DNA of 64,000 nt from Antedon mediterranea (lineage: Eukaryota > Animalia > Echinodermata): assembly GCF_964355755.1 (NCBI RefSeq), contig NC_092678.1:13638352-13702351 (forward strand), in the 5' to 3' direction. Position 1 is the first letter of the stretch. Each line of letters opens with the position of its first letter. The notes beneath the pieces were generated by a model. The model was not told the DNA's origin and did not search any database. It was given only the letters and a program-made list of their open reading frames with translations. Of this stretch, positions 18,367-50,392 are shown piece by piece. A program made the position numbers and the translations under genes.

Positions 18367-19557
18367 CTATTGGTTATGATTATTGAGCTGGTCCTGTCTG
18401 AATGAATTTTCTAGGCGTCCTTTTCTGTTGGTATTATTAGCATTTGTGTAGCCAAATTTCTTGGGATGGTTTCCATAATCATGTGATGTGGTGTTTGAAT
18501 ATGATCTGGTTCTCCAACCTCTGTATGGTCCACTTCTCAATTGATCTTGTCTTTGGTAGTTTGTTGCATATTGCCTTGGTTGCTGTCTTCGTACAAATGG
18601 TTTTATGATCATATGTCTCTCATTTAAGTTCCTAAGAAGGCATTTTGTACCAGATTTGGAAAGGTGCAAACCACTTCCGTTGAGGTGCGATTGTAAAACT
18701 GTACCATTCTTCAGGAAAAATGTTTCATCGTTATCAACTAGACTACAGCAGTTGTTGTTAGCTATCTCTTTAATTTTTGCATTCATCAAAGCAATCCTAG
18801 GTAAATGATCATCGCTGTCAGTTCTCGGGCACACTGTAGAAAGCACAATCTTTGTTGTTGGAGCTTTAAGTTTTACCTCTCTTGACATTTCTTCATAGTT
18901 GACAAGACCTTCTTCCAAATCATTATCGGATGTACAATTGTTTGTACCAACATGGATGAGGATCGAGCTAAAATCTTCTGGTTTACTGAGTTGTTGTTTT
19001 ACATCCTTAACTTTCCCTCCACGTATGCAGTTCACTTTTGAGTTACTAAGGCCTCTTTCGCTTATGTCCTTTGTAATAGAGTCACCTATTATACAGCTTG
19101 GTTTGTCATCAGTAGTTCTCAGTTCTTGAGAGTTATTGGGCATAGAGCTTGTATTACTTTTATTGAGCTGCATCTCTAAAATCACAGACTTTTGCTCATC
19201 TACTAGCTTTGTTAAGGAGGCAACATCATCTACTAGTTTGTTCAGCATATCTAGTTGTAACTTGTTCTGTTTTTCAAGTTCCAAGACATTCCTTGGTAGG
19301 TAACAACATGATAAACAGATCCACGACTTGGATGTAGAATTTGGGTTAATGTCTACACACACTCTATGATATGTTTCTTTACACAGTAGGCATTCTGTTG
19401 ACTTTCCATTACTTTCATCAAAGTTTAACTTGCAGTTATCAATACACTTAATCTTTCTGTTGGTGATTGGTTGCGGTTGTGAACGACTTTTACTACTACT
19501 AGGGCTGGAGTCAGATTGCGATTTCCGAGGGCTCACGTTTTTCTTAGCACTACCCAT
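18367..19557 (-). CDS. LINE A ORF1: PHD finger + coiled coil + SGNH esterase domain
   Basis: C-x3-C...CLLC...HRVC...WICLSC PHD finger; IIGDS, HVGTNN and GLHLS SGNH blocks, as in CR1/L2-group ORF1 proteins. Confidence 0.9.
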   Translation of the reverse strand: MGSAKKNVSPRKSQSDSSPSSSKSRSQPQPITNRKIKCIDNCKLNFDESNGKSTECLLCKETYHRVCVDINPNSTSKSWICLSCCYLPRNVLELEKQNKLQLDMLNKLVDDVASLTKLVDEQKSVILEMQLNKSNTSSMPNNSQELRTTDDKPSCIIGDSITKDISERGLSNSKVNCIRGGKVKDVKQQLSKPEDFSSILIHVGTNNCTSDNDLEEGLVNYEEMSREVKLKAPTTKIVLSTVCPRTDSDDHLPRIALMNAKIKEIANNNCCSLVDNDETFFLKNGTVLQSHLNGSGLHLSKSGTKCLLRNLNERHMIIKPFVRRQQPRQYATNYQRQDQLRSGPYRGWRTRSYSNTTSHDYGNHPKKFGYTNANNTNRKGRLENSFRQDQLNNHNQ

Positions 19558-23200: not shown

Positions 23201-26200
23201 AAATGCTAACGAAGCTTGGAAATCGTGGAAACCCGTTGTAGTGTCTGCTGCCGAAGAGACAATAGGCTATAAAAAACAGTCCAGAAAAGGTAAACAATGG
23301 TTTGATTGTGATATTGAGCAGTCAATGGAAAAACAAAAAAAAGCGTGTCGAGCACACCGACTATATGTTAAGAACAAAACTAATTCTGACTTTAATAAAA
23401 CTATAAGGGATAATCTCTGGAAATATTATCAAACTAAACGAAACGAATGTAAAACATTAATTAGACCAAAAATGATGCAAATCCGGATGAATAGATGTTC
23501 AAAAATAATGGAAAAAGGCGGACCTCAGTCTAGAGACTTCTGGTCAGTTTTAAAAGGAAATAAACGAACACACAATGTTACATCTATAATAATTCCGGGA
23601 ACGGACAATCAGACATCAGACGCACCCATAATTAAGTCCTCGTTAACCAATTACTTTAATACCTTAGGTAAGAAAACTTAGATGTAGAGAATGATCTATT
23701 TAATGACAATTTAGCTGACACTTACAACATAAATGTTCAAACCGCTACTCTGGATAAACTCGAATTCTCATGTGAAGATGTAAAATACGCAGTCTCCCTA
23801 TGTAAAAACAACAAAAGCCCGGGCAATGATAATATTTCTAACGAATTGATAAAAACGGCGGTAACACAATTGTTGCAACACTGTATAAACTGTTTAAAAG
23901 GCTCTCCCATCTCGAATGTATACCAGATGAATGGAACAACGGCACAATAGTTCCTATATTTAAAAAAAAGTGACCGGCGAAATTTAGATAACTATAGAGG
24001 AATTACCTCAAACTCATGCATTGTTAAGATCTATAGTCGAATAATTTCTCGAAGAATATCAGAATTCCTTGAAGAGTATGATTTATTAACCGAAGCACAA
24101 GGGGGTTTCCGTAAAAATAGACGATGTGAAGACCATATCTTCACCCTTAAAAGCTTGATAGCTACTCGACAAGCCGAGGGTAAAAAGACATTTTTGGCTT
24201 TTCTCGATTTCCGAAAAGCATTCGATACAGTCTGGAGAGAAGGACTAATAAAAGCATTACGCCGAATCGGTATAAAAGGTAACCTAATTAATATCGTACA
24301 AAATTTATATGAGAATGTTAAATGTAAGGTCCAATTTGCTAATTTAGAGACGGAGTTATTTGATATCGATGAAGGTGTTAAGCAGGGATGCTCGTTATCG
24401 CCAACACTCTTCTCAATATACATCAATGAATTACGTATAATGCTTAACCACTCAGATCTAGGTGTTAACATCTTTAACACTAAAATTAATTGTTTATTAT
24501 GGGCCGACGACGTCGTGCTAATAGGAGAAAACGAGAAGGAACTTAAAATGCTCCTACAAACTACTACAGAATTTGCTAAAGAATGGAAAATGTCATTTAA
24601 TTATGATAAATCAAATGTCCTTATCACAGGATAAAGGACCAACTTATATAGAAAATGGAGGTTAGGAAACAATTCTATAACAGAAACTGATAAATAAATA
24701 TACTTGGGAGTATATATTTCTCGTACGTTGTCAGACAATCTTCACATAGACGAAGTTATCAAGAAGGGTAATCGCATCATTGCGTATATTAAATCCATTA
24801 TAAATGAACAAGATGATTTTAACAGAATTTATTACGGGGACCTATTATGGAAATCTATCGGAATCCCTACCATTAATTACGCATGCTCAGTTTGGTACTG
24901 TAACGGAAAAACAACAATGGCAAAAGTTGAAAACCTGCAGTTTTTAATGGCGAGAACCATTCTTAAGGCTCCGCGTAACGTTGCAAAAGAGGCTCTATAT
25001 GGTGACTTGGGCTGGCAATCACTAGAATCGCTTCAAAACTACTCTCGGATTAAATATTTTAACCACCTAAAAAACATGGAGAAGGACAGATTGTCCAATG
25101 TGATTTTTAACGCCATAAACATTCTTGAAGATAAATTAAAATGGGGATGGTTAAATCAGGTTAAAGAAGCCTTACATAAATGTAACATGGGTGATATGTT
25201 CACCAACGAATCACCTGGTAATTGGTTAACTCAATTTAAATGCAAGAACAAAGATATCGATAATAACGAATGGCAGAAGAGAGCACAATCAAAATCATCT
25301 CTGACACAATATATATTGTACAAGAATAAACCGATATTAGAACCATACCTTCTTTACAAAAATGACTTTAAAAGAAGTTGTTTGAAATTTAAGGCGAGAT
25401 CGAACTCTCTAAACCTTGAAGGTAGGAAACAGTCATGGTCACCCACGAGTACGGGTATGTGTGCACTCTGCAATAATGACACTGAAACTATCGCACACTT
25501 TATGTTAGAATGTAATACATTTAGTAAATTAAGAGAAGAAATCTTCTACCCAATGAAATTACAATTAATGAATAACGGGTTTGAACATTATTGGAAATCT
25601 TTCTACGAAGGAACCTCTGAAATGAAATTACATTTGTTATTAGACAATTTATATAATGAAAACGTTGTTCTTGGGGAAATTTTTGACTTGGCTTGTAAAA
25701 AATACCTACAAAGTGCCTGGGATACCAGGTTAGATATATATAAGAAATTACCAACATTACCCCAATAATTAGCCATTTGGCTTTTACATTGATAAACTAG
25801 TTTATTTGCTTATCTAACTTCAAATACATATAAACATATATTTGTGTTTATCTCGATTTTTGTAAAAATAATCATGATTATGTATTATTTATACTTTTGA
25901 CCTATTGTATCGTTATACTGTTATCCAATTGTTTTTTAGTTTTATTTTCTATGTACGTATAAGTTTGTTTGTTTTTTTTTTTTTCAGTCAGACATTTTAG
26001 CTTATTTAGTTTATACATTGATAGACCAGTTAGATATACCAATAACTAATCATTAAACAAATAAAATCTTGTACTTGCTGTTTGCTATATCTATAATTTT
26101 AAGTACATAAACATATATTTGTGCTTATTTCGATTTATGTAGTAATTTTATCATGATTATGTATTATTTATACTGTTCACCTCTTGTATCGTTATTCCGA

Positions 26201-32211: not shown

Positions 32212-33000
32212 TTAGTATTTGTCCATTATGAAGTCATCGAAACGTTTGGGTACACGTCTATTTCGCTTTGGTCTGGTGATTACTACCTCTTCCTTTTGAG
32301 GATCAGGTGTCTTCGGCGGAGTTTCGATAGGAGTTTCATCCACTTCTCCTTCAACATTAATATCTTCTTCATGTGATTGATTTAATTGTCGGCGATTGCG
32401 TCTGTACACTTGTCCGTTTTGCGTAGCGACCATATATGATCTCGGGGTAACATGTTCAGATAACACTTTCGCGGGGACCCATTCTCGGCCTTTGTTGAGA
32501 CGGACTATCTCGTTTCCTTTCAGTGATTGTAGCGTTCGCGTTCCACGATTGTAATATTCCGCCTGTTTGTCTTGTCTAACGATCAACGAATTATGTGCGT
32601 CTGGAATCAGTGTAGGCTTAAGTTGCTCGCGTGCGATAGGAATTCGTGTTCTAAGCCTTCTGTTCATCAGCAACTGTGCTGGAGATTTGCCGATACCTCC
32701 CAATGGCGCATCTCGATAAGCGAGTAAAGCTAAATGAAAGTCTCCGTGAAAGTCATCAGCGGCTTTTCTTAACAATTGCTTGACTGTCTGTATGCACCGT
32801 TCAGCTTGACCATTGCTTTTTGCATAGTTGGGGCTCGATGTGATTAGTTCTATCCCCCATGATTTAGCGAACTTTTTCATTTAAAAACTTGCGAAAGGCA
32901 TTTTGTCGCTTACAAATGTTGCTGGAATGCCATGTCTCGCGAAAATCGTTTTTAGCCTGCCGATTACTTCTTTGGCAGTTTTGTTGCGTAGCGTGACGAT
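32212..33000 (-). pseudogene. Gypsy integrase, distal part of catalytic core and C-terminus
   Basis: IVTLRNKTAKEVIGRLKTIFARHGIPATFVSDKMPFASF*MKKFAKSWG...SSPNYAKSNGQAER...YRRNRR; one in-frame TAA. Confidence 0.95.
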
Positions 33001-33403
33001 CCACAACAACCGATGGATTGTCTCGAATTCCATAAATTCTTCCCGCGTGATTCAGGTTATTTGTAGACGTGTGCATCGGAATGCTCTTGAACTTTCCCCA
33101 TAACAGTGTCTGATGAAATTGATAATTCAATGACGTTTTTGTTCGTACGTTGAAATTTCCTCTCGTCGTAATGTTTGTCGAGCCGGTGGATGCAAACGAC
33201 AAGGCGGTGGATCCTCGACATAACGGCGATTGAAATTCTACCATGTCGTCTTGTAATTTGGTTCCTCGCATGTGTATGGAATGTGTCTTTTCACGTTTGT
33301 CGTACGCGTATCGATGAGCAATGTTCTGCGACGACACCACGTTCACTAGGAAGAAATTGATGGCAGCTGTTTTACACGTAGATTCGACTTGGACGTGCAC
33401 CAT
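33001..33403 (-). pseudogene. Insert gene of unknown function truncated at the left junction
   Basis: ATG at 33403 overlaps the kinase 1 3' end; about 134 codons then run out of frame into integrase sequence. Confidence 0.6.
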
Positions 33404-35004
33404 GAGTTTTCTCGTATAGGCGTGTGTATCGATTTTATTTTGTTTCCTAACATCTCTTTGAAAACCCTATCGGTGACCGTTTGCTGCTTCACTCCAAGAG
33501 GAAGAATGATTGACGAATCCTTTTCAATCTCGACAACTACATGACCGTCTGTCGTTTGTCGATGCGTTGGAAACAATGACACCAAGAATCGAAGTTCTCT
33601 GTCGTTGTAAACTCTAAACTCTACCGACGACGACGATGACGATGATGACGAAGGTTTTCGATACAGATTCAATGCTGATCGAACAAACACGACCGCCAAC
33701 GTGCCGTCTGCGTTGTCAATCAACAGGTTCATATGATCAACTGTTATGTTTTCGCCACTTTCTTGAAACACCACATCTCCAACTAGCGTTTGAAAGTCTC
33801 TGTAAAACAAATGAACGACATTCTGTGCAACCATCTTCACCGATAACATGTCCATAGATTCGATGTTGGTGCGCTGTGATTGAACGTCGTTCTTCAACAC
33901 TAGAAAGGACTTTCTGTTCTCCGGTATTGGATTTAAATTGTCAACAAGCCGATCGATAAAACGTTCACCGAGAACACTTCGATATCGATCCAGTATAGGC
34001 AGTTCATCGGACGGCTGGCATTCCAGAGCCTTACATATGTTCATGTCAGAGTTTACGTACGTGTACCAGTAAGCCGTTTCGAATTTTGTCATACCACCTC
34101 TTATCTTCACAAATTGTCTGCAGAGGCCGACAAGAGTGTGTAATATCTTCGACTTTTGCCCAGTGTCTCCAAGTCTTTTCATGTCTGTGTATTGCACCTC
34201 GTCAAATTGTTGGCATTCGTTGTACATTGTGGCCGTCACCACGGTCATTGCGGCAGAAAACACGTCCGATTCACTATTCAGCAGTTTCACCACTCTGTCT
34301 GTCATCACGTGACTGATATCTCGATACCCTATGGACACTAGTCTGTCTACGCTGCGCACTCCTCCGAATCCAGTGTCAACGTCCATTGTGTAGATCGGCA
34401 TGTCCGATGGTATGTACGCGGAGGCTATCGATTCTTCGTGAACGCATCCAACACCTCCAAATAAGCCGACCTTTTTGCTCGATTCAAATTCGATCATTTT
34501 TCGACGATGTACTTCGGCCGAACCGAAATCAATAAACTTGAATCGACCCTGCCGTCTGTTGTACGTCACATTCCTGATGGTTATGTCGTTATGTGCGACT
34601 CCTATCTTGTCCAGAAAAGCAAGCCCCTCGCCAACATGTCGATAAAGTGTAAGCACGCACGGCAACATTTGCATTGTCATCCGTATTGTAAACAAGTCAA
34701 AACCTTCGTTTGTCATGCGCAGACATTGAGTCACTCCTGAATCGACGACTGCCTGACATATTTGCGGCGTGTACCGTTTCAATCTGTCAAAGTAGTTTGC
34801 GTAAGCTAAAATGAAAGTTTCCTTGTTGAATGTTAAACGTACTCGTGCATCGCTGCTATTCTGATTGCCACAATGTAATTTTTCAACTAAACCAGACTCT
34901 ATGGAATGGACAACGCCAAACGAACCTCGGCTGTTCACAGTCACCAACGGATCGATTGTATTATCCAATTTGCCAAACGATAAAATCTTCTTTTGACCGT
35001 GCAT
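33346..35004 (-). CDS. Atypical protein kinase 1 with C-terminal extra domain
   Basis: RGSFGVV loop, NKE helix-C glutamate, HNDITIRNV catalytic loop, IDFGSAE, SDVFS, LNPIPENR. First ATG at 35004. Intronless. Confidence 0.9.
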   Translation of the reverse strand: MHGQKKILSFGKLDNTIDPLVTVNSRGSFGVVHSIESGLVEKLHCGNQNSSDARVRLTFNKETFILAYANYFDRLKRYTPQICQAVVDSGVTQCLRMTNEGFDLFTIRMTMQMLPCVLTLYRHVGEGLAFLDKIGVAHNDITIRNVTYNRRQGRFKFIDFGSAEVHRRKMIEFESSKKVGLFGGVGCVHEESIASAYIPSDMPIYTMDVDTGFGGVRSVDRLVSIGYRDISHVMTDRVVKLLNSESDVFSAAMTVVTATMYNECQQFDEVQYTDMKRLGDTGQKSKILHTLVGLCRQFVKIRGGMTKFETAYWYTYVNSDMNICKALECQPSDELPILDRYRSVLGERFIDRLVDNLNPIPENRKSFLVLKNDVQSQRTNIESMDMLSVKMVAQNVVHLFYRDFQTLVGDVVFQESGENITVDHMNLLIDNADGTLAVVFVRSALNLYRKPSSSSSSSSSVEFRVYNDRELRFLVSLFPTHRQTTDGHVVVEIEKDSSIILPLGVKQQTVTDRVFKEMLGNKIKSIHTPIRENSWCTSKSNLRVKQLPSISS

Positions 35005-35030
35005 TGCCGTCGTGTGCGTCAATCGAATGA

Positions 35031-36272
35031 TTAAGAGAGAATGGCTTTCTGACGTTTATCTATTTTACCTCGACAAATCGGACACAAAAGCAAACTGTTT
35101 GAACACGACCAGCAGGCGACCAAATGCGAACATGGAATGAAAAGAACACAAACGTCAGCGTCCATGCATATCTTACATGTTTTTTTTTCGCGTAAATCGC
35201 GCACAACAGATTGCACATCTTCTTCTTCCTCCACTTCTTCCTCTTCTACCACTGTTGGTTTATCGTTCACTGGAATCGTGACAGCGTTCAGAAGCTCAAG
35301 GGTAGACGTAAAGTTTCCACCGGTTCTCTTCACGTGATCGTTTACAGTAGTCGATACATGTTGCATGTCAAAACCCATTTCTAAAACTTTCACAACGATT
35401 TCAGAGCGCATTGCAATATCAAACGGACTTTTTGACGAAATAAGAGCCGTCTCGATGAAAGGAAAACCATTTTCGATTCTCAACCAATTGCAGAACGGAA
35501 ACCACTTTGCATGCTCGATCCAAGGATTATCGTCTAATTGCCAGTCTTTCAGTCCACCGCCGCAATGGAAACACATTGCCTGGTCCCGATTGATTGCAAA
35601 GAATCCGGCCTCAGCTATTCCGTTCGGCGTATGATCGGTAGCCCATACTGTAGTAAACGTCATTTTTCGAACATTCAAAAGAGCGTACTGTGGATGCATT
35701 GCCCGTTGCCTATTGTTGGTGGTGGTGGTGGTGGTGGTGGGGGTCGCCACGGTGGCCGCGGTGGATAACATGAACTTGCACAACGGGAAATGTTTTCTAT
35801 GCTTTTCGTCGACATTCACTCCTCTTTTCCATCGCTCAAGTAAACCGTTGCAAGAGAAGCATTCGACTACGTCACAGCATGACCTGTAATAAAATCCAGA
35901 CTTTGCTAAAGTGCACGCCGATACGATGTGTCCAAATGGCCAGTTTTTAAAAGTCGACAATCTGACCATATGCGAGTTTGAGTCGACCAAATGTGTTTTA
36001 CTGCCGATTAAAGGACTACTGTTACCACATGACATCAGTTTGCAAAACGGGAAGTGTTTCTTGTGCTCTGTATCGGCATCTGCTCCGGCGTTCCATCTCG
36101 AAAGTTTACCGTGACAACGGTAACATTCTACCCGGTCTTCTTGCCCCGTATAAAAGAAGCCCGACATTGCTAACGATGTAGGCGATATCACGTGTCCCGC
36201 AATCCAAAACTCATACGTGGCCAATCGTCTTTCATAACATTCCATCGCGCCTGTATGCACTATTTTATTCAT
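35031..36272 (-). CDS. iap: Inhibitor of apoptosis protein, 3 BIR + UBA + RING
   Basis: Three CxxC-x16-H-x6-C BIR motifs with GFFY/GFYY/GFF, LEMGF UBA, C-terminal CKICMD...CSH...CWSC...CPICR RING. Intronless. Confidence 0.97.
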   Translation of the reverse strand: MNKIVHTGAMECYERRLATYEFWIAGHVISPTSLAMSGFFYTGQEDRVECYRCHGKLSRWNAGADADTEHKKHFPFCKLMSCGNSSPLIGSKTHLVDSNSHMVRLSTFKNWPFGHIVSACTLAKSGFYYRSCCDVVECFSCNGLLERWKRGVNVDEKHRKHFPLCKFMLSTAATVATPTTTTTTTNNRQRAMHPQYALLNVRKMTFTTVWATDHTPNGIAEAGFFAINRDQAMCFHCGGGLKDWQLDDNPWIEHAKWFPFCNWLRIENGFPFIETALISSKSPFDIAMRSEIVVKVLEMGFDMQHVSTTVNDHVKRTGGNFTSTLELLNAVTIPVNDKPTVVEEEEVEEEEDVQSVVRDLREKKTCKICMDADVCVLFIPCSHLVACWSCSNSLLLCPICRGKIDKRQKAILS

Positions 36273-36371
36273 TTCTGTCTGTGTGCGCGAGCGGGTGTGT
36301 GTGTGTGTGTGTGTGTGTGGCCCGAAGAGTATATATTATAGCAATTTGTAAATTCAGATTCACCACACACG
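36273..36371. promoter_or_regulatory. Putative bidirectional promoter between iap and the 120-aa gene
   Basis: 99-bp spacer between divergent ATGs with TATATATTATA (~36330) and a (GT)n tract. Confidence 0.45.
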
Positions 36372-36734
36372 ATGGAGGATTCGATCGCAAAAGAAATGAA
36401 CACTGTTGTGGAAAATCTGAAATCGATATATTTTAAACAATTCTCTGATATTTTGAATACGATGATTAGAAACGGATGCAACGGATGTATTCACGAGCAT
36501 CCTTCTCAGATCGAACATGATCTATGTTTGATGGCTCCGGATAGAGAGAATATAGAACGTTTCTTTGACAACATTGTTATCGATAAAGAGGTACTGTTCA
36601 TAGAATGGTGTCATCAAAATGCTGATTTTCTGGAAAGTTGCTCTAATGTCAACGCCTGGTTCGAAGTTCTATTGTCGGAAATAAAAGATAGCAACAATTT
36701 AATCGATCAAATATACCGTTATAGATTAATTTAA
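36372..36734 (+). CDS. 120-aa protein with a CxxC-x3-HPSQ-x2-H-x2-C putative zinc motif
   Basis: Clean ATG-to-stop ORF downstream of a TATA-like element; motif CNGCIHEHPSQIEHDLC. Confidence 0.75.
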   Translation: MEDSIAKEMNTVVENLKSIYFKQFSDILNTMIRNGCNGCIHEHPSQIEHDLCLMAPDRENIERFFDNIVIDKEVLFIEWCHQNADFLESCSNVNAWFEVLLSEIKDSNNLIDQIYRYRLI

Positions 36735-36816
36735 TTTCTCTTGCGCCGGTATTTTCTTCGGTAGATTTAATATGAATTTTTACTCGACATACAACTTGTA
36801 ATATAGAAACAACTGA

Positions 36817-38279
36817 ATGTATTCTCCTTCATTCATAAGCAAGTCAAACACGAGTGTAGGTGCAGAATTTTTTCATCCAATGATCTGGTGAAAACGACCG
36901 CAGAGAAGGTTATGCCTAAGTCAGATGATTTGTTACAGGACGAAAACGCTTCGTTGAAGAAAAGTGTAAAATGTATACACCTTCTAGAACAGTTGTTGAA
37001 AGACCGTGATAAATCGTTGAACCACTTAGAGAAGACGGTAAAAAACTATAAATTATGTATTGAACATCTACAATGGCGCTTACACAAACACAACTTGGAC
37101 TCATCAGTTGATTTGAAAGAACATGAAATATTCGAGCCTGGTCACGATAAACAGATTTTAATAAGCTTGTTGAATGACGCTATACGATATAAAAGATTGC
37201 TTGACGAGAAGTTTAGCTCCGAAGAGGTAAGACGAAACTAAGTGTGAGAATATTTGTCATGAATTCGTTAAAATTATCATAGTGGTGTGAGTGTGTGATT
37301 TATTATTATTATTTTTTAATGTTCAGGTTGCCGAAGCAAAAGAAACCATTTCTGTTCTTGAGAAAGAAGTTAGTAAGCTGTGTGTACAGTTGAAACGGAA
37401 AGAGAACGAACTCATTGTTGTTTTAACTAAAATGAGATCCTCATACGACGAGAAAGATGTAGTAATTAGTAAGTTAAAATGTCAGCTACGAGATTATTTT
37501 ACACAGCGTAACAATGATGACGCTGTTCGTGACACGTTGAGCTCCGAAATAAGAACATTAAAATCAAATACTGAACAGTTTGTTGAAGAGAAAAAGAAGA
37601 TAACAAATGAACTAAAAGCATATGCGCAAAGAGAGAAGGTATGGGTACAGGAAAGAAATATGTGTTTTGCTCACGCTAGAATTTTACATTCAGAATCAAA
37701 GTTCGAAGATGAATGTAAAACGTTGCAAGAACAGGTTCGAAATTTAAGTCGTGAAAATACAGATTTATGTAGGCAATTAAAAGAGATAATTGTTATGAAC
37801 ACTCGCTGGCAAAAGTACTCTGAACAAAGAGAAGCACACGTTGTGCAGTTGAAACAACAATTGAAAGTATCTGAAAACAAAGTTTTCAAGAATCATTGCC
37901 TTATTTCTGAACTTGAGCGGATGGAAAAAGAGAAACGAAAAAAAGAAATCGATACTGCTGTTCTTAGTTTGGCAACAGATTTGGGAAAGACATGCGAATT
38001 GAATTGACTAAACACAATAACAGACTTGATGAAATAATTGGTCAATATCAAGAGACGTATGCGTCACTTCAACAATCTTACTTACCTTCTTCTAATACTC
38101 CCGATATTCTTGAATTAGTTTGTGATGATGATGATTAAGCAGCTGTAGAAGACGGTAATTTGGATGAATTATTACAATGTCCTCGTTTTCTGAAAGAGTT
38201 TAATATCATAGAACATGTTCAGTTAGTTGATCATTTAGATACATGTGATGTTGATGAATACAATAATTCTATCTTATAA
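36817..38279 (+). pseudogene. TNIP2/ABIN-2 (CEP55-related)-like coiled-coil gene with one intron, disrupted
   Basis: Phase-0 intron 37227-37326 (GTAAGA...TTCAG) joins the ORFs at 36888 and 37291. EABR-like MNTRWQKYSEQREAHVVQLKQQL; C-terminal LLQCPRFLKEF...LVDHLDTC finger. Frameshifts near 36870 and 37985; stop at 38136-38138. Start position inferred. Confidence 0.75.
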
Positions 38280-38446
38280 AATCTGTGCTGTTTTTGTTTT
38301 TGTTTTTTTGTTTCTTGCTAACAATCATTAATCAATAATAAAAGAAATTAACAGAATCTATAGTACGATCTATTCAATAACAATAAAGTGCATTTGGTAA
38401 TCTAGACGGGTATATATGCTTTTAATATAAATGATGGCGTGTTTTT

Positions 38447-39420
38447 CTCTAACACGATGTTCTCAATAAAGGAATAATAAATTGATAATAAAGTGTGTAT
38501 TTTGTAAACTAAACAGTATACAGAATTAAAAGTGTATTCGAAGTTATACTAAACGTAGAAGACGGCGTGTTTGTTCTCGATAAAGGGATAATGAATTAAA
38601 CGGCGTATAGTACTAATATTGTAGTCCTGATAACGAAGAAAATAAGTATTGCGCCCTCTATTGACAGATAATATGACTATTATTATTATATCGTGACAGA
38701 CAATATACTGTTTTTTTTAAACGGGTATAATATTCTTTTATTATAGAAGACGGCGTGATGTTCTGTAACGCGATGTTGTCGATAAAGGGATAATGAATTG
38801 ATAAAGGGATAATGAATTGATAATATTGAGTGAGAAGTATAAGGAAAGATCTAGAAGGTTATGAACATATTTTGTATAACGGGATGTATGTTCTCTCTTG
38901 TGTGTGTAAACTGAATGCTTAAACATTGATGCACACTGTCATTGAGGTCGAAGTAATCAAAGGCTGTTTTCTAATTGTTGATAATCTATTGAATTCGAAA
39001 GTAATCTATTGAATTCGGAAGTGATTTGTTGAAATCGGGTCATATCTTAATTGCCTTGAAAGAAATATAAAGCAAGTTACATATTTTTGGAAAGCTTAGA
39101 GAGTATAAACGTGTACTGCCCTTGGTGAAGAAAGTCTTGAAGATGAGTTTTTCATAAATTTTTAATGTCCCAATGTATTATGTACATCGAACGAATACCC
39201 ATTGAAAAGTTAAACAATCAAATGCTTTGACTTCTTACCGAAGTAAAAAAAAGATTTTAATTGATTTACTCATCATACAACATGCGACGAATGCATGACA
39301 TGTTATGCCTCTTCAGTTCTCTTTTTGTTGTAAACTGAATGTTTAAATATTGACGCGCGCTGTCATTGGCGTCGATGTAAAGCTTTTATTTTTCTAAAAC
39401 ATTATCGACCGAACGCTATG
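38447..39420. repeat. Diverged, rearranged copy of the insert's internal repeat
   Basis: 38447-38960 matches ~44710-45250; 38959-39095 matches ~44470-44610; another partial copy near 39325-39380. Confidence 0.8.
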
Positions 39421-39981
39421 CGTACTATCACATGTTGAATGCTTTAACAATAAATGGGCACTGTCCTTGAGAGGGAGGTCTTGAATATGAGTTTTTCATA
39501 ACACAAAGTTTATTCGAGTTTATAATAACGGACTTTCTATTTAGAAACAAATGAGAGAAGATTTGTTAATTGCGTAATACTTTTATTGATTTTTACTTTA
39601 CCTATATAAAATACAATGTAAACAAAACTAATGCCCATGATTCAGTGACAACAAAGTATTGCACCCTATATCTATAATTTATAAAATCCAATTCAATCAA
39701 TTCACGTTTTATTTCAGAACAAAGTCCATATCATAACACACAACAATATTCAATAAATTAATGTAAGTAAGTAAAAAAAAATATATAAAACAAGTCGCAC
39801 ATAAAAAATGCCGTCGGAAAACCGTCGGTTTTAAATTATTAGTGAAAAAACATTTTAATGGCTATACTGTTACGTAAAAAGTATACATGAAATTATGTAT
39901 ACAGAAGTTCAATCCATTTTCTGTGCAATTACTACTACTACTACTACTACTACTAATTTATTTTAAAAAAAATAAAAAAAA

Positions 39982-41622
39982 TCATCTACATGGTCGTTTC
40001 GCAGATGAAACTTCTTCTTCATCATCGGCCACCACCACCGTATTGTATTCGGATCTGAATTTTTCGACGCTTACTATGAGCGGTACGTCGTCGTTGACTT
40101 TCACATACATTCGGCGTATTCCATCGTGTAATTTTAATTTAGCGTTGGTGCCGAATGAATTCGACAAATGTTTAATGTCCTCGTCGCTGAACACGCAGAA
40201 TTCTACTGTAGTTGCAATATATTGACTCAGTCTGAGAGCCGACATGAGAAACGACATGATCAGTTTCCGATCGTTTGACATGATGTGCATATGTTCCACC
40301 ACCACAACGTTTTGATTCGGGCTTTCGTTGCCAAATTTGATGTCTCCAATCGAAATGTCATGTTCGTGTACTAGATACACCAATCTATCTTCAACGCGTT
40401 TCAACGAAAACTGTTTACCGCCAAACAATACAGTTGAGTCGTGTTGTTTTGAAGCCGCCTTTTCTAGTTTCGATACACTTCGACGTTCCGGTACAGGGTT
40501 CAAACATTCTTTTAAAGCGTCCGTAAACTCGACTCCCAAGAACGGACTGAATCTATCGATGTATGAATTGTATTTCTTGCTGCTGGAACAATGCGACAGT
40601 GAAAATGCGTCGGTCAGTGATCTATCCGGATTCACGTGCGTGTACCAAAACTGGAGATCACGTTCGTTCATCGGACCACGTAGTTCTACCGAATGTCTAC
40701 ACACCTTAATCAAATTGTTGTACGCAAATTTGTCCTTTTTTAAATCGCAATAGTCGCTTTGCGTCTCAAACTTATTCCGATTGTTGTCATCATAAAACAT
40801 TAAAGCCACACTCATCGAGGCGCTGTAAACGTCCGAATTTCGACGCAACATCTTCACTCGTCTGTCTGACATCACATGACTTATGTCCCTGAAAGGTATC
40901 CTTGTCAGTTTCTCCTCACTCCTGACGCACGAATATTTTGGTTCGGTGTCGGAAAAGCGTAGTCGACTTCCCGGTGGCAAGTACTTTGACGCCATGGAAC
41001 CGGTTCGAACGATACCCAAACACCGATGGCCATGTCTCTCTTTCACAGAAACGCCAAACGTGCTTGCACCGTGCTTTGTAAACTCGGCAGAACCAAAGTC
41101 TATTATACGAAATCGATTATCTAATCGACTATACGCCACGTTCTCGATTGTTATGTCGCTGTGAACCACACCTGCGTTTTCGAGAAACGTCAACGCTTTG
41201 CAAACATGTAACGAAAGCGTTTTCACGCAAGGCAGAAGCTTGTAACAATAGCGTAGCCTGTACAGATTACATCCTTCGTTTCTCATCGTGATTGATATTG
41301 CGATGTTACGCCGATAAGAAACTTCGAGCAGACGAGGCGTACACATTCGAGCCGCGTCCGTTTGTTTTAAGTGTGCAAGAACCAAAACTTCCTTGTTTCC
41401 CGACAAGTTCACGTCTTCATGCTCGAGCGTAGACGTGCGGCTGGCCGTGAAATCATACAATGTCTTTATCACAACGTGCACGTTTTCTTTAGCTGTCTTC
41501 ACTTCGCCATGTTTCTCACTTTCTTGAATTCGAATAGCGCCGTACTTGCCGTTTACAGCCGGTAAACTTTCATACTTTCTCGTTGTTATTTGCGTCTTGT
41601 ACAGGGGTAGAAATTCAGCCAT
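39982..41622 (-). CDS. Atypical protein kinase 2, paralogue of kinase 1
   Basis: NGKYGAI, VVIK, NKE, HSDITIENV, IDFGSAE, FRDISHVMSDRRVK, SDVYS, LNPVPERR. First ATG at 41622. Intronless. Confidence 0.9.
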   Translation of the reverse strand: MAEFLPLYKTQITTRKYESLPAVNGKYGAIRIQESEKHGEVKTAKENVHVVIKTLYDFTASRTSTLEHEDVNLSGNKEVLVLAHLKQTDAARMCTPRLLEVSYRRNIAISITMRNEGCNLYRLRYCYKLLPCVKTLSLHVCKALTFLENAGVVHSDITIENVAYSRLDNRFRIIDFGSAEFTKHGASTFGVSVKERHGHRCLGIVRTGSMASKYLPPGSRLRFSDTEPKYSCVRSEEKLTRIPFRDISHVMSDRRVKMLRRNSDVYSASMSVALMFYDDNNRNKFETQSDYCDLKKDKFAYNNLIKVCRHSVELRGPMNERDLQFWYTHVNPDRSLTDAFSLSHCSSSKKYNSYIDRFSPFLGVEFTDALKECLNPVPERRSVSKLEKAASKQHDSTVLFGGKQFSLKRVEDRLVYLVHEHDISIGDIKFGNESPNQNVVVVEHMHIMSNDRKLIMSFLMSALRLSQYIATTVEFCVFSDEDIKHLSNSFGTNAKLKLHDGIRRMYVKVNDDVPLIVSVEKFRSEYNTVVVADDEEEVSSAKRPCR

Positions 41623-41634
41623 AGCAGCAGCACA

Positions 41635-42133
41635 ATGTCGGCGATTTACAGATGGCAAGACACAAATTCAAAGAAATTGTACGCGGCACTGATCGTTGAA
41701 CGTAAATGGATAATACTGGAACGTTTCTCCCCTAGTGATGAATGGAGTCCACCGTTGCCTACACTCGACGTTACACCGGACACATTGGAAATCGAAATGA
41801 TAACAAAGCCAAGCTGGAACGGTGTTGTGTTCAGGGACTATAATCCACATCCGTTGCGTGAGCGAGGAGTCGCAATGAGACCGACGCTAAATTTAGCTTC
41901 GAATCTGTCGATGGCGCAGATATCCCAATGGCCAACGCATGTCGGTAAGTTCACCGATACCCATATGACGTACGAGAAGAGAACTGATGTTCTTGTGATT
42001 AACGGCTGTAGGGTAAACAGATCATATCCGACAATTTCGAGAATCATCAATCATCATCTTCACCACCACCACCCCAATGTGAAAACTAAAAACAAAAGTC
42101 GACTCATCACGCATATTACACCACCACCACCAT

Positions 42134-42166
<33 letters not shown>

Positions 42167-44106
42167 AAGACTTTATGCACACGCCTCGAATGTTGAAGCT
42201 GTTCACGTCGATGACAAGCGATCCGAACGTAGCTCTATTGGCACTCTCATTTGAGCTGTTCACCGCGTCTACCAAAAATGTGCACGCGCTACGACGGCTG
42301 CTCTCGAACATATGCGAGAGAACATCGGCATCAGATCACATACTGACGCAATCGAAACAGTTTTGGTTTCATATGCGATCGCATGGAATCAATCAACACA
42401 ACTGGCATTCAAAATCTCCATCCAATGTCGTTGCAAAGGCGAGAGAGTATCATCGTCCGCCAGTACAAGACGAATTGATTCTGGCCAGCGTTCTGTTGTG
42501 GGAAATGGCCACGTTTGCGCGTGGTAGACGTACCCCGTTCACTTTTGAAGCAGTAAAGATGCAGTGTTATTTGAACGAAGCGCGTGTTGCTGCTGCTGCT
42601 GCTGTTGAAGAAGAAGAAATCCTACGCAGAGCGTTGAATGAAGTCGCCAAGAAAAGAGAACGCACGACGTTCGCGTTAGAAGCTGAGAAGATGGGTCTAG
42701 AGAACTACGCAGTTATGAACGGTGTCTACATCGATCTTGAAACAGTTTTGTTCAATCTTCCAAAATTACGCGCTACTCTCTACAAAGAAATCGGAAAAAG
42801 ATTGTTACTGTTTGAGGATTTTGAAACGACGATTCAATGTCTGTGCCTGGACGTGCTTCGACAAGCTTCTTCCTTCTTGAGCAGTTTCGAACTCATCAAA
42901 TCCATCGCTCCTTTGTATCCAAAAAAACGCAGACGAATCACACAGAAACGCATCGAAGGAATCGACAGGTTTCTTACGAATTTTGAGCGACGCGTTGACG
43001 GCAAACGAAGAAAACGTTTTGTCAAGTACCTGCAAACTTGGATTCCGAAATTTCCTGTTCCGGAACACGACGGTTACGCCTCCTTACAACAAAGATGCGA
43101 TCAAAACGAGGCGCTTCGACTGTTTGCAATTGCCTATCCGGCCATAACATTCTCGTTCGCCGTTCCCGAAGTAAAAAACGACGCCCAGCTTATGTTTGCT
43201 CTCGCCAACTGCACATCACACCTGGGTAGACTGATGTGGTTTGACTTTGATCCGGTGACGGTACGCATCAGATCATCCGTGATCGGTCTCACGCCCCTAC
43301 AAGAACAACGCCTCGAAATGGCTTCTCTTCAACCAGCGTATGACGCGTACGAAGAGTCTATCCGCGTCACTCAGCACATTAGACACAGTATACCTTTTAT
43401 GCACGTATCGATATTCGAAGGCGTTCAAGCCAACGTGGTTTGCCGACAGAACGAACGCTACGTAACTCGTCTCTAGGCCTATCCTCTTATCTTTGCCTCG
43501 TATGACGTTATAGACGCGAATGAAGGTAATCGGCAACCTCCACAACCCAAACACGGAGAATGTACATCCTATTACCAGAACGTTGTCACTGTCGACAATG
43601 CTGGAGTGGTTAAATGGAATCATACATCGCCATGTTTTGCGCGATTCATTCAATGTGCAAACGTTTTGCTTTTATGTCATAAGAAATCAGACTTTGTTCG
43701 TGGCCCTATTCATTCCCCTGAAGATAGCGTTCACGTACTTTGTCAACTTGCACTCGATCACAAGGACGACGATAACGATGACGGAGAACTTGCGTCACCG
43801 AGATCGTTTCCTTGTCATCTACCTCGACCGTTTGATGACAATATAGTATTGATAAACGATGACAGTGGTGGTGATGGCGAGGAGAAAATACGGTTCTGTA
43901 TCGTCAGCCCGGACGATATGAGGCCTTTTTTCCCAAAAGATTTCATCGAAAGTATCATTGCCGATCCCCATCGGACGCCCGTTATACAGAAAAAGATGGT
44001 GTTTTACTTGAGGGCAGATCTTACCAATGAATACACAGAAAATCACTTTCTCTCCGACAAGGACAGAAGTGTTCTTGTTGCCGGTTCAATCATAAGACGT
44101 CGGTGA
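41635..44106 (+). pseudogene. ~823-codon orphan gene with one internal TAG
   Basis: The 613-aa and 166-aa ORFs share a frame; the only stop between them is TAG 43474-43476. No recognisable domain. Confidence 0.8.
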
Positions 44107-44444
44107 ATGAATACACACGCACACAATTCAAAACTCGGTGTTCAATTTGGTTATTATTAAGCATTGGCAATTTGGAACAGGACAGTGTAGAAATTGAAAC
44201 ATCATCATCCATTTAAGTTTAGTACTTTTTTTACGTATGGTGTTTGTTAGCACGCGATTAATAGCGCCTACAATTTTCGGTGAAGATATATACAGTACCT
44301 ACAGACAATTCCTATTGTCAAACCTGCTAATGATAAATAATTTTCATAAAGCCCGGCGAGCAGTCTTGTCCAAAAAAAAAAAGAGAGCAAAAGGGTTTAA
44401 TTTGTGATTGTGAGATTAATATTAAAATAATAATAAAAAAAATA

Positions 44445-45744
44445 AACCAATGTAATGGTCCACTGAACTTCAAAGGCTGCTTTCTAATTGTTGATAATCT
44501 ATTGAATTCGGAAGTAATCTATTGAATTCGGAGGTGATTTGTTGAAATCGGATCATATCTAATTGCCTTGAAAGAAATATAAAGCAAGTTACATATTTTT
44601 TTGGAAAGTTTAAAGAATGGAGATTAATATAATAATAATAATAATAAAATTTTAATTTCAACACAAGGCTCCTTTTGTGGTGACACGAGCCATATTTTCT
44701 TTTATTATCCCTAACACAATGTTCTCGAAAAAAAAAAATTGACCATAACGTGTCACTTTGTAAACTAAACGGTATACATTCTTTTAGTTATAGTTGTTCA
44801 CTAACACGATTTATACTAAACGGTATATTAATAGAAGACAAAGTATTTGTTATCGATGAAGGGATAATGAAATTGATATTATTATAATTTAAACGGCGAG
44901 TTTAGTATTTTGTAGTCCTGATAACGAATACAATAAGTAGTTCGCCCTCTATTGACAAATAATATACCTGCGTTATACGCCGCGTGACAGACAATAATTA
45001 TACTAGGCCTACTGTGTTTCTTAATGGGTATATTTTAGTTTTATTATAGAAGTTCTGTAACGCGATGTTGTCGATAAAGGGATAATGAATTGATAAAGGG
45101 ATAATGAATTGATGATTGAGTGAGAAGTATAAGGAATGATCTAGAAGGTTATGAACATAATATTTTGTATAAGGGGATGTATGTTCTGTCTTGTGTGTAA
45201 ACTGAATGCTTAAACATTGACGCACACTGCCATTGAGGTCGAAGTAATCATTGCATACGGATGCGTGTTACTGCTCTATCAAGATCAGGACTGCATTATT
45301 CACACACATAAAACACTGAGAGTAATAAAGAGAATCTATGCTTGATTGTTTTACACTCGAAAAATGTATTAGTATTTTGTAATAAAATAAAGGTAATTCA
45401 AATTGTCACATGATGCATTAATAAATTAATTAATGTTCATAAACGTCCAAATACTAGTTTTCTAGCATTTGTATTAAAATAATGCCTGCTATCTGTCTAT
45501 ATACTGTAGCAGATATATTTTCATGTTTCGTTCTGCTCTGCATACGGAATGTGTGTGTGTGTGTGTGTGTGTGTGTCTTCTACTGACTGACTGACTGACG
45601 TTCACGATTTAACGTTACCGCTCCAAGAATTCAATACTACAATACATTGTTTGTTGTAATATTGATATTGCTATACCTTTCAATGTTCATAAATGTCAAT
45701 ATGCTGGTGTCTCCTATTCCATCTATCTTTGGTACAGTTCTTGA
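44445..45744. repeat. ~1.3-kb direct repeat, copy 1
   Basis: Highly similar to 46087-47413; includes the last ~110 nt of the AlkB-like ORF. Confidence 0.95.
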
Positions 45745-46086
45745 GGATGAGGATACTAAAGACTGGATGGGGATAGACAAAGGTTCTGACGGCGAGGATA
45801 GTTATTGAAAACGAAGAAGAATGTGTAAGAATTTGTATAGGCCTAATCATGATCTAGAGTAGAAGTGAGTTATGTTAACAGATTGTGTGTGCTCAAAATA
45901 ATCCATTAATCAAAATAATTATGCATTTTTAATTGTTGATTTTATATATTAAGATGATAATAAAAATGAAAGAAATTAAAGTGTATTCTTTATTCGTATT
46001 CATTGTTTAAGTGTGTAAAATTTCATGTAGATCCAGTAATAATAACTAATGGTATCCAATGCGAATGTGTTGTGGTTATTGAATAG

Positions 46087-47413
46087 AACCAATGTAATGG
46101 TCCACTGAACTTCAAAGGCTGCTTTCTAATTGTTGATAATCTATTGAATTCGGAAGTAATCTATTGAATTCGGAGGTGATTTGTTGAAATCGGATCATAT
46201 CTAATTGCCTTGAAAGAAATATAAAGCAAGTTACATATTTTTTTGGAAAGTTTAAAGAATGGAGATTAATATAATAATAATAATAATAATAAAATTTTAA
46301 TTTCAACACAAGGCTCCTTTTGTGGTGACACTAGCCATATTTTCTTTTATTATCCCTAACACGATGTTCTCTAAAAAAAAAAATTGACCATAACGTGTCA
46401 CTTTGTAAACTAAACGGTATACATTCTTTTAGTTATAGTTGTTCACTAACACGATTTATTCGATAATGAACCCTAATTAAAAAAAACAAACAAAAGTGTA
46501 TTCGAAGTTATACTAAACGGTATATTAATAGAAGACAAAGTATTTGTTATCGATGAAGGGATAATGAAATTGATATTATTATAATTTAAACGGCGTGTTT
46601 AGTATTTTGTAGTCCTGATAACGAATACAATAAGTAGTTCGCCCTCTATTGACAAATAATATACCTGCGTTATATGCCGCGTGACAGACAATAATTATAG
46701 GCCTACTGTGTTTCTAAATGGGTATATTTTAGTTTTATTATAGAAGCTCTGTAACGCGATGTTGTCGATAAAGAGATAATGAATTGATAAAAGGATAATG
46801 AATTGATGATTGAGTGAGAAGTATAAGGAATGATCTAGAAGGTTATGAACATAATATTGTATAAGGCGATGTATGTTCTCTCTTGTGTGTAAACTGAATG
46901 CTTAAACATTGACGCACACTGTCATTGAGGTCGAAGTAATCATTGGATACGGATGCGTGTTACTGCTATATCAGGATCAGGACTGCATTATTCAAACACA
47001 TAAAACACTGAGAGTAATAAAGAGAATCTATGCTTGATTGTTTTACACTCGAAAAATTTATTAGTATTTTGTAATAAAATAAAGGTAATTCAAATTGTTA
47101 CATGATGCATTAATAAATTAATTAATGTTCATAAACGTCCAAATACTAGTTTCCTAGAATTTGTATTAAAATAATGTCTGCTATCTGTCTATGTAGCAGA
47201 TATATGTTCATGTTTCGTTCTGCTCTGCATACGGGATGTGTGTGTGTGTCTTCTACTGACTGGCTGACGTTCACGATTTAACGTTACCGCTCCAAGAATT
47301 CAATACTACAATACATTGTTTGTTGTAATATTGATGTTGCTATACCTTTCAATGTTCATAAATGTCAATATGCTGGTGCTTCCTATTCCATCTATCTTTG
47401 GTACAGTTCTTGA
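46087..47413. repeat. ~1.3-kb direct repeat, copy 2
   Basis: Highly similar to 44445-45744, with an extra ~50 bp near 46460-46510. Confidence 0.95.
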
Positions 47414-48022
47414 CCATTCATTGATTGTTTCAGAATTTATTACCAGCATCGAACCGTGCTCCATTTTTATGTTCACAGGTTTAATGTTTTTGTTGGTGCG
47501 GTGTTCGAATCTACAGATTCTAGTAGGTCCCAGAGACATAATGCATACAGGACTTATTTTGCTCCTTTGTACATCATTAAGATAGCATTCCGCTGAATCC
47601 TCCGCTCTTGTCAAAGTTACCATATTGTAAAAATGACCAGTCGCAATGTGTATCCATTCACGCATTTCGAGTAGAAACTTTGGCCAGTAACACAGAGGAC
47701 TTCTTCTCGCTGTGTCGTCGATGTTTGTGTGAACTCCTATTTGGAATGACAACTCCAAATCACCGTACGGTGCACATCTAATGTGATCTACTTCAGTGAT
47801 CACATCACGTAACTTATATAGAGAATCGAATAAATGTGTTTTCCTACATTGTTTTAAAATAGTGTCTGCTATCAGTCTATGTAGCAGATGTACACGAACG
47901 CATTTCATGTTATCTTCCGGTCTGCATACGGTGTGTGAATGAAAGCCGAAATAAAACTCATCTTCTGACTGGCTGACGTTCATGATTACTTTATTGCTAC
48001 AAGAATTCACTACAACTTCCAA
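47306..48022 (-). CDS. AlkB (ALKBH2/3)-like fold protein lacking catalytic residues
   Basis: WPKFLLEMREWI..ATGHFYN..SPVCIMSLGPTR..RFEH..MEHGSMLVI..EWSRTVPK..ILTF follows the ALKBH2/3 pattern. Start uncertain (TTG at 48022, first ATG at 47983). Confidence 0.8.
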   Translation of the reverse strand: MEVVVNSCSNKVIMNVSQSEDEFYFGFHSHTVCRPEDNMKCVRVHLLHRLIADTILKQCRKTHLFDSLYKLRDVITEVDHIRCAPYGDLELSFQIGVHTNIDDTARRSPLCYWPKFLLEMREWIHIATGHFYNMVTLTRAEDSAECYLNDVQRSKISPVCIMSLGPTRICRFEHRTNKNIKPVNIKMEHGSMLVINSETINEWSRTVPKIDGIGSTSILTFMNIERYSNINITTNNVL

Positions 48023-48505
48023 TTAAAGTTTGAAACTAAAACTCCATACTGGTCGATTTTTATACTTTGCGATGAAGGTTAACTACACGCGTTGTCAACA
48101 AACAACGAAACCGATGAATGATTGTCGATTATACTGATGTGTATGTGTGGTGCGCGCTTTAAAATTCGTATTGAATATATCGTGCCTCCTCTTCCTCCTA
48201 CCCGGCTTAATTTGCGTATGGTTTTCGAATGATGATCATGAACACACAAACGGGTGTAATTCCATCGTTAGTTACTTTAGTGTTACAATAAAACCGTCTC
48301 GGCAACATGATGGAAATAAGCGTCACTGTCGGTAAATGTATACACCGGTCCCAAAGAGTCAGGGTCAATTACTTTTTTTTAAGAAATATGTTTAATGTGT
48401 ATTATTATTATTATAGTTTAATATAAGCGTATTTTATAAATTTAATCTCCATTGATTCTATCATCATATTTTAAAATCAAAATGCTATGTTTTAAATTCT
48501 ATTTG

Positions 48506-48551
<46 letters not shown>

Positions 48552-49085
48552 TCCCTCTCCTTCTCTCCTTATTAATTTAGATTCGACTATGTAGAAACGG
48601 AATTTAATTTCCAAATTAAAACACTGCATTGTAACAATATTATAATCGGTCTGCTTTTCTTTTATCGATGATGACAATAGAAATAAGGGTAGGGCGTGTG
48701 TATGTATCACCGCCGGTCAGTGTACACACCAGGTCACAAAGCTTTAAAGAAATATTTTTAATTGTTATCCCGAATATGTGTGATAGAGTAATTCGTTTCG
48801 ATATATAATCATTTTGGTATACTAACAATTTGAACAAGCTTCCTCTACGCGCCCAGTCGTAAATCCAATCCTAGATTTTATATTTACCGATATTGCGACC
48901 CTATATAGTTTTTGATAAATTACTAATACTGTTATGGTATCGATAGATTGTAAGCCAGCCGAATGGTTAGTTCTTGAGTCTCGTAATTTAACGCTGTAGC
49001 CTTAGGCTAGGGTTCGAGAATTGATTTGATACATATATATATATATATTTTTTTTAAATATTTGTTTTACTCACCATCTTCTTTA

Positions 49086-50392
49086 TTGACAAATAATCTA
49101 CAACTACTAAGTGGTCATTTCCTCCAAAGTTGAAAATGTCTGCCCCAACTTTATAAAAGGGTATTTCAGGTATTTCGTGAGGTATCATTGGTTCACGTTG
49201 ATTTTTCCTTTTGTACTTCGCACATATCGTACATCTTGATACCATGTCATGAATAGCATTGGTGATACCGGGCCATTACAACAACTCTCTGGCTCTGGCC
49301 TTGGATTTCTCTATTCCTAAATGAACATCATGAATGCGGTTAAGCATGAATTCTCGTTTGCTTTCTGGTACTATCAATTTCTGCCCAATAAACATTAGTC
49401 CCTCGTGTTCATAAATTTCGTCACGCATCGGCCAAAATTGTCTTATCTTTACGCTGACTGACTGACGTCGCTCAGGCCAGCCAATATAGCACTGTTTCGA
49501 TAGTTCCTTTAGTGTCTCGTCCTCGTTAGTCGCTTGTTGTATTTCCGTTATTCTAGCTTTACTCATACTCAACAGCTCATGTACGGCATGTATACGATAT
49601 TGTAGAATTTCAGGATCATTTGTGACAGTTTCCATCGGAACCGCTCTGCTCAGTGCGTCACGTCTGCGATATACATTTCACGACCTGGAACATATGTGAC
49701 ATTTATATCATATTTTAATAGTCGTAGCATCATCTGCTGTAGTCTGGGACTCGCCTTGTGAATTGGTTTCTTTGTAATTGACTCAAGAGGTTTGTGATCA
49801 GACTGGATCGTAACTGAACGTCCGTAGACATAGTTGTTAAACCTTTCAAGTGAAAAACAAATAGCTAGCATTTCTTTTTCTATCTGAGAATAGTTCATTT
49901 CGGCTGACGTTAGTGATCGCGAACTATAGCGTATCGGGTGACCATCTTGCATTAAAACACTTCCTAGTCCAAAAGATGATGCGTCACATTGGATTACTAC
50001 TTCTTTATTCGGATCAAAGTACTTAAGTACTGGCTCTGAGCTTAACAAACTCTGCAAATGTTTTAGCGATTGGTCGTGGCGTTCATCCCAAGACCGCGCT
50101 ACTTCCTTCTTTAATAACTCTCTCATAGGAGCGCTGATGGTAGACATATTCGGAATAAATGGCGACAGATAGTTGATCATTCCCATTAAACGTCTCAGGT
50201 CAGACTTACAAGAAGGTGTAGGCATATCATAAATTGCTTTTACTTTAGAATTATCAGGCTTAACACCATCTCTACTAATTATGTGACCTAAGTATGTCAA
50301 CTCATGTTCTTTAAGCTTAATCTTATTTCTATTAAATTTTACATTTTCATCTTTAGCACGCTCCATGACTTTGGCTATCACATTATCATGAT
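49086..50392 (-). pseudogene. Gypsy pol: RT C-terminus, RNase H, linker, integrase HHCC and first catalytic Asp
   Basis: YLGH, QCDASSFGLG, NYSQIEKEMLA, SDHKPL, HDVHLG..CTIC, VGADIF, VVVDYLS; with frameshifts and stops. Confidence 0.95.

Follow-up and report, generated by a model that had tools for sequence, protein, structure and literature searches.

An intron-bearing gene resembling TNIP2/ABIN-2 lies close to an IAP gene in Antedon mediterranea, within the 64,000-nucleotide stretch of DNA analyzed here (the window). The question raised by this locus is where the gene came from, what carries it, and whether it still serves its carrier. The analysis confirmed a real, host-derived, broken TNIP2/ABIN-2 copy at 36817–38279, inside a multi-copy virus-like element. 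We favor the reading, at a probability of roughly 0.6, that the TNIP2 gene of the host was taken up by a multi-copy mobile element, most likely a large DNA virus that became endogenous, and that the captured gene was likely once kept in frame and is now decaying.

The copy is on the forward strand and begins with a short upstream ATG frame of 24 codons (36817–36891), likely the original N-terminus, judged by an unscored, by-eye likeness of its translation to the host N-terminus. This frame stops at 36889–36891 and differs from that of exon 1 (36867–37226), which has an in-frame ATG at 36912 and corresponds to host residues 26–147 (93 of 122 identical to XP_071960316.1; also matched by tblastn). 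Exon 1 is followed by a 100-nt, phase-0 GT-AG intron (37227–37326; donor GAG/GTAAGA, acceptor ...TTCAG/) and by exon 2 (37327–38007), an open frame for host residues 148–383 (162 of 236 identical) that contains the coiled coil and the EABR domain. The stop of exon 2 at 38005–38007 falls directly ahead of the UBAN region, and the tail of the copy continues in another frame: an out-of-frame remnant of the post-UBAN linker (37998–38138), recognized by weak local likeness and by its frames, ends in a stop at 38136–38138, upstream of a C-terminal finger remnant (38139–38279; 26 of 41 residues identical to the host). The initial annotation, made from the sequence alone, had proposed this intron together with two frameshifts and one stop, and all were found at these positions. 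Since the junction residues SSEE/VAEAK of the copy are continuous in both crinoid proteins, XP_071960316.1 and XP_033097270.1, the splice model is not a product of chance. After splicing, 331 codons can be read without interruption from 36912 to 38007, with the EABR domain included, so the window copy need not be dead and a shortened product is possible.

The EABR domain (37774–37866, exon 2 residues 150–180) matched Pfam PF12180 at E 2.5e-4 with 21 bits, short of the 25 bits that the curated cut-off requires; the host protein XP_071960316.1 scored 28.8 bits. The residues of the N..W..Y...RE motif, which had been noticed in the predicted coiled-coil protein, align with the EABR of CEP55 through the host protein. 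The piece proposed as a zinc finger gave no Pfam match, and no finger family was assigned by Pfam to XP_071960316.1 either. In the window it reads CPRF where CxxC is expected, out of frame and behind a stop. Contigs of four runs (X1, X5, X8 and X9, of nine listed) were aligned to the window, and the inferences drawn from them come from the matches listed; X5 and X8 are labeled as two other organisms, the window may derive from X1, which is not an independent run, and X9 is RNA by guess only. At the finger position, contigs of all four runs carry the host-type cysteine (in X5, both contigs there), so the reported phenylalanine belongs to the window copy and not to the element in general. Host residues 384–546, the UBAN region, had no tblastn match in the window, which indicates that this region was deleted from the copy where the frame changes; there are weak traces in the tail, whose middle piece gives a match of 9 residues only. 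The motif DFxxER of UBAN/AHD2, which is also visible in the alignment with PDB entry 5H07, is present in both crinoid proteins and absent from the copy along with the UBAN region, as had been noted.

Which gene was the donor? A search of 2,811 candidate proteins of 397–2000 aa returned two homologues of exon 2, both from crinoids: XP_071960316.1 of Antedon mediterranea and XP_033097270.1 of Anneissia japonica. Identity of the copy to the Antedon protein was 76% in exon 1, 69% in exon 2 and 63% in the finger piece, which bears out the proposed host origin and amounts to a protein divergence of 24–31% in the exons from the host's own gene. XP_071960316.1 has an EABR domain above the cut-off, a weak CC2-LZ match, the sequence DFKLER and a terminal finger region, and its best PDB match, at E 4e-5, was 5H07, which covers the part of human TNIP2 that binds ubiquitin. 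The EABR, DFKLER and the rank of TNIP2 ahead of CEP55 among solved structures identify the donor as TNIP2-type. Of the two names initially given to the layout, TNIP2 was therefore retained and CEP55 (E 0.15) was rejected. When exon 2 was itself compared with the PDB, there were two matches at E up to 10, both unrelated. The crinoid TNIP2-like proteins and human TNIP2 (5H07) have a coiled coil, an EABR and a terminal finger region like those of the copy, whereas the copy differs from the crinoid genes and proteins in lacking UBAN and in carrying two frame changes and a stop.

A three-way comparison over 354 columns gave 111 changes in Anneissia only, 31 in the copy only and 15 in Antedon only (p 0.026), which places the capture after the Antedon–Anneissia split and points to faster evolution of the copy. 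The changes are unevenly spread: exon 1 has 3 copy-only versus 5 host-only changes, and exon 2 has 24 versus 8. All four indels in the exon alignments between copy and host are whole codons, an outcome expected about once in 81 by chance at one in three each when frame-breaking events outside the alignments are ignored; the indels were taken from protein alignments, in which compensating shifts may be hidden. This mixture of rates and indels suggests a functional period followed by relaxation.

The TNIP2 copy is part of the IAP-bearing block of genes, and its linkage to the IAP was observed in two organisms. Record 3 of X1 (33674–37108) bridges kinase 1, the IAP, a 120-aa orphan and exon 1, and record 12 of X5 extends from the IAP through the 3' end of the TNIP2 copy. 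In addition, X5 and X8 share one joint that skips 37023–38004, so that 982 nt of the copy, including the EABR, are missing. Multi-copy spread with near-identical copies was demonstrated for the IAP only: all five other members of its cluster, two of them partial, are 98.0–98.3% identical and occur in Antedon on three long contigs. The IAP loci of the Antedon mediterranea assembly carry the accessions XP_071944663.1, XP_071948744.1, XP_071943930.1, XP_071959867.1 and XP_071948749/50.1. Contig depths (~42 versus 13 in X1; 242 versus 236 in X5) do not measure copy number, and no copy number was derived from them. It had been recognized at the outset that the gene might instead be an independent host-gene insertion with its own boundaries, and the GC content of the copy (34–36%, against 44–45% in the kinases and the IAP) agrees with a separate arrival in one copy of the block. 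The bridging contigs in X1 and X5, the deletion joint common to X5 and X8, and a divergence from the host protein of 24–31%, compared with 2% among the IAP copies, make such an event very improbable. Separately, record 28 of X9, which covers 37706–38004, is a third TNIP2-like sequence with 44 other letters and 19 gap letters; its indels fit neither the host protein nor the window copy, and it perhaps represents another element-borne copy.

The block that holds the copy (33000–49086) lies in a Gypsy LTR retrotransposon on the reverse strand (31899–56162), which has identical 169-nt LTRs and a 5-bp target-site duplication. The block splits the Gypsy integrase, which reads ..VVVDYLS at ~49087 and resumes with VTLRNKT at ~33000. 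The edges of the block show neither a terminal repeat nor a target duplication, and the true ends of the element lie outside the window. The left edge cuts a gene, and an X5 contig runs 414 nt past 33000 in sequence that does not align to the Gypsy integrase; the block is therefore a fragment of something larger, and the Gypsy element is its landing site and not its carrier. Within the pol gene of the Gypsy element, at 50415–53258, an inverted duplication with arms of ~300 and 145 nt surrounds a 30-nt tandem array of ~34 units. Two LINE elements are also present in the window (15397–19557 and 20434–25768), on opposite strands, one with a PHD/esterase ORF1 and a long ORF2 and the other fragmented.

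Apart from the TNIP2 copy, the block genes are tightly packed, lack introns and lie on both strands, and two of them abut or overlap. The reverse strand carries a truncated orphan gene at the left edge (33002–33403), a divergent protein kinase (kinase 1, 33346–35004), the intact, intronless, multi-copy IAP with three BIR, a UBA-like and a RING domain (35031–36272), a second divergent kinase that is 35% identical to the first (kinase 2, 39982–41622), and a gene with an AlkB-like 2OG-Fe(II) fold (47306–47983). The forward strand carries the 120-aa orphan ORF (36372–36734), which had no meaningful family match, and two orphan ORFs of 613 aa and 209 codons (41635–44106) with no homologue or family; for the 613-aa ORF, none of 7,994 candidates was homologous, the best Atlas value was 0.78, and there was no phage match. 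None of the 60 leftover short frames matched Pfam. CpG content was considered as a marker of the block and discarded, as the block is not distinct from other young repeats in this respect. A non-coding repeat block (38443–39383) recurs at 44441–45744 and 46082–47413; its copies contain internal tandem repeats of 19–20 nt, and the contig depth over them is far above that of the genes. The three copies resemble the interspersed origin regions of baculovirus-like viruses, or may be a host repeat. In the first duplicated segment (45469–45744), the AlkB-like gene region is reduced to its two ends, the frame at 47306–47983 being intact; when the AlkB-like protein is aligned with ALKBH2, the usual iron-binding His is missing from it. 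Over the truncated orphan gene (~33224–33356), a second, diverged contig was seen in X1, X5 and X9, suggesting a paralogue elsewhere in the element.

We consider it quite probable that the block is part of an endogenous large DNA virus. Membership of the gene in an IAP-bearing module had been proposed correctly; the viral nature of that module is less secure, as no capsid, polymerase B or packaging gene was found in the 16 kb block, which is a fragment cut inside a gene. Likewise, no integrase, transposase or herpesvirus core gene was found in the block, and no nimavirus core gene or tyrosine recombinase was seen in it. Scans of IMG/VR with single proteins recovered no family-level relative, and a profile scan gave 18 loci that were mostly catalytic-loop matches, 17 of them over at most ~80 residues. 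That no virus hallmark gene was found fits an alternative in which a large transposon of non-viral nature, or the Gypsy element itself, carries the block as cargo and gathered host genes, the IAP early and TNIP2 late. The position of the block inside an LTR element with identical LTRs can be read in the same way, as can a quick tree of 34 IAP sequences, from which near-duplicates and fragments were omitted, which places two IAPs of Anneissia as the sisters of the element IAP (SH-aLRT 98, with long branches). This tree position would fit an older capture or element-borne IAP copies in Anneissia. Against a cargo origin stand the close packing of intronless genes on both strands with two abutting or overlapping, the extension of the X5 element 414 nt beyond 33000 outside the integrase, and the distribution and gene order of the kinase family considered below. 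We judge the cargo reading unlikely.

The two kinases belong to a family defined by a kinase domain and a conserved C-terminal extension, which, among the relatives found, occurs only in crinoid DNA and environmental proteins. Ten relatives were looked up; seven are full-length environmental proteins, one more is an Anneissia fragment on a 1,091-nt contig, and none is a full-length named cellular protein. In the Atlas features, kinase 2 scored 0.94 against its nearest neighbors, Nucleocytoviricota kinases, and 0.93 against rows from bacteria and eukaryotes, which is a lead only. On a distant environmental contig (L019), a kinase is followed by the same orphan gene as in the block: the truncated gene at 33002–33403 is a relative (59 of 128 residues identical) of a 240-aa gene located 3' of the L019 kinase. 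This shared gene order, found at one locus, also speaks against a cargo origin. L019 is gene-poor and unclassified, with five ATG ORFs of at least 80 aa in 8.4 kb, and may itself be an inserted fragment. A TATA-binding-protein identity for the 240-aa orphan was without support when checked, and its single-sequence structure model was unusable (pLDDT 37.6). A gene for a matrixin-type metalloprotease (L019:7603–8292) adjoins the kinase–orphan pair. The known sites of the kinase family (33346–35004, 39982–41622, proteins P0048–P0056 and L019:5328–7638) are a possible marker of an unclassified element family.

If TNIP2 was captured by an endogenous virus of this kind, the introns of the host gene bear on the route. 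Among the matches listed, record 5 of X1, which is host-type DNA, starts at 37326 with 236 unaligned bases ahead of it, a start made less sure by the masking of 37296–37325 as a repeat. The depth at 37162 in X1 (55.6) is accounted for by the element contig (43.7) and another contig (12) among the matches listed, which indicates that record 5 stops short of exon 1. Host TNIP2 thus likely has an intron longer than ~170 nt at the site of the copy's intron, as these contigs suggest, and the two positions would coincide. Record 5 ends at 37700, X5 has a joint at 37645–37705, and record 27 of X9 passes through this region (among the matches listed). A second host intron near 37700 (around host residues 270–273), absent from the copy, is likely, and at this site the copy has a deletion of two residues. 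Relative to crinoid TNIP2, the first intron of the copy is shorter, and the second would have been lost. Because the copy is without the likely second intron, capture at the DNA level, as originally claimed, is not proven; the observations are compatible with DNA capture and later loss of an intron, and equally with reverse transcription of an RNA in which splicing was incomplete. The second route, from a TNIP2 transcript, seems possible, though we lean against it. The break of host-type DNA contigs near 37700, where the presumed RNA record 27 of X9 is continuous, suggests a lost host intron and favors this route, and LINE and LTR reverse transcriptases are encoded within the window. Gene capture mediated by LINE-1 has been reported for poxviruses (PMC9578705, PMC9578709). 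On the other side, the copy retains one intron, the two-residue deletion fits an imprecise DNA deletion equally well, no poly(A) tail was seen 3' of the AATAAA signals, and the exon map of the host is drawn from the matches listed.

Mammalian ABIN-2 is reported to bind A20, TPL-2/p105, linear ubiquitin, TSG101 and ALIX (PMC6219730). We propose the following sequence of events. The element would have taken TNIP2 from its feather-star host after the Antedon–Anneissia split, retaining and shortening one intron and losing the second. Early selection would have held the gene in frame before decay set in, and the most plausible original benefit would have been a brake on NF-kB or an adaptor for ESCRT alongside the IAP. 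In its present state, the copy most likely rides as a passenger within the 16 kb fragment inserted in a young Gypsy element. A protein without UBAN cannot bind ubiquitin in the known way, so the copy could have a decoy or ESCRT role at most. The present anti-NF-kB or ESCRT use put forward in the initial annotation was not upheld, as the gene is broken here and lacks UBAN, and the EABR is also gone in X5 and X8. Nuclear transcription, which had been deduced from the intron, would follow only if the gene is expressed from the element.

Could the element nevertheless still use a shortened ABIN-2, with the 331-codon frame acting as an NF-kB decoy or a recruiter of TSG101/ALIX? The canonical splice sites, the open frame from 36912 to 38007, the preserved EABR motif residues and a rate of change in exon 1 that is not raised (3 copy-only versus 5 host-only) would agree with such use. 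We regard it as improbable in view of the 24 copy-only versus 8 host-only changes in exon 2, the absence of 37023–38004 with its EABR from the X5 and X8 contigs, and a likely original start that is out of frame. Moreover, among the matches listed there was no spliced transcript of the copy, and the presumed RNA pieces over the gene differ from it by 15–17%.

The captured, decaying TNIP2 gene and its carrier can be compared with known systems. Majaniviruses, endogenous nimaviruses of shrimp, are described as multi-copy elements with BIR genes and host-derived genes, some of them with introns (PMC10871703). The block resembles them in being a multi-copy endogenous element with BIR genes and an intron-bearing host-derived gene; it differs in its echinoderm host, and no nimavirus core gene, tyrosine recombinase or telomere-repeat target was seen. 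Teratorn, a fusion of piggyBac and a herpesvirus in medaka, is likewise a large mobile element that is reported to have captured immune-signaling, anti-apoptotic and kinase genes (PMC5601938), whereas no herpesvirus core gene, transposase or terminal repeat was found in the 16 kb fragment. The ABIN-2/TPL-2/p105 node matters to viruses elsewhere: the rabies M protein (PMC5679641) and FMDV VP1 (PMC8092693) are reported to bind or degrade host ABIN-2 complexes, and neither virus is described as encoding an ABIN-2 copy. In agreement with the earlier statement that no viral homologue is known, no virus-encoded ABIN was found in the literature searched, where supplementary tables of virus genes could list one.

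The weight of the finding is limited by the broken state of the gene and by the precedent of nimaviruses, which are known to carry captured genes with introns. The most far-reaching possibility, which we hold to be a long shot, is an undescribed family of crinoid endogenous large DNA viruses in which one lineage or more expresses a spliced ABIN-2 that lacks UBAN, as an NF-kB decoy or ESCRT recruiter beside the IAP; if true, this would be the first virus-encoded ABIN. Captured genes point to those pathways of the host over which a virus needed control, and a copy of ABIN-2 would single out the A20/NF-kB or ESCRT node as a target in echinoderms. The copy also records a capture in progress: one intron remains and a second was likely lost, a domain has been deleted, and the later decay differs between organisms. 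The carrier may outweigh the gene in importance, being a recently multiplied crinoid element that has a kinase family of its own and lacks a classified relative.
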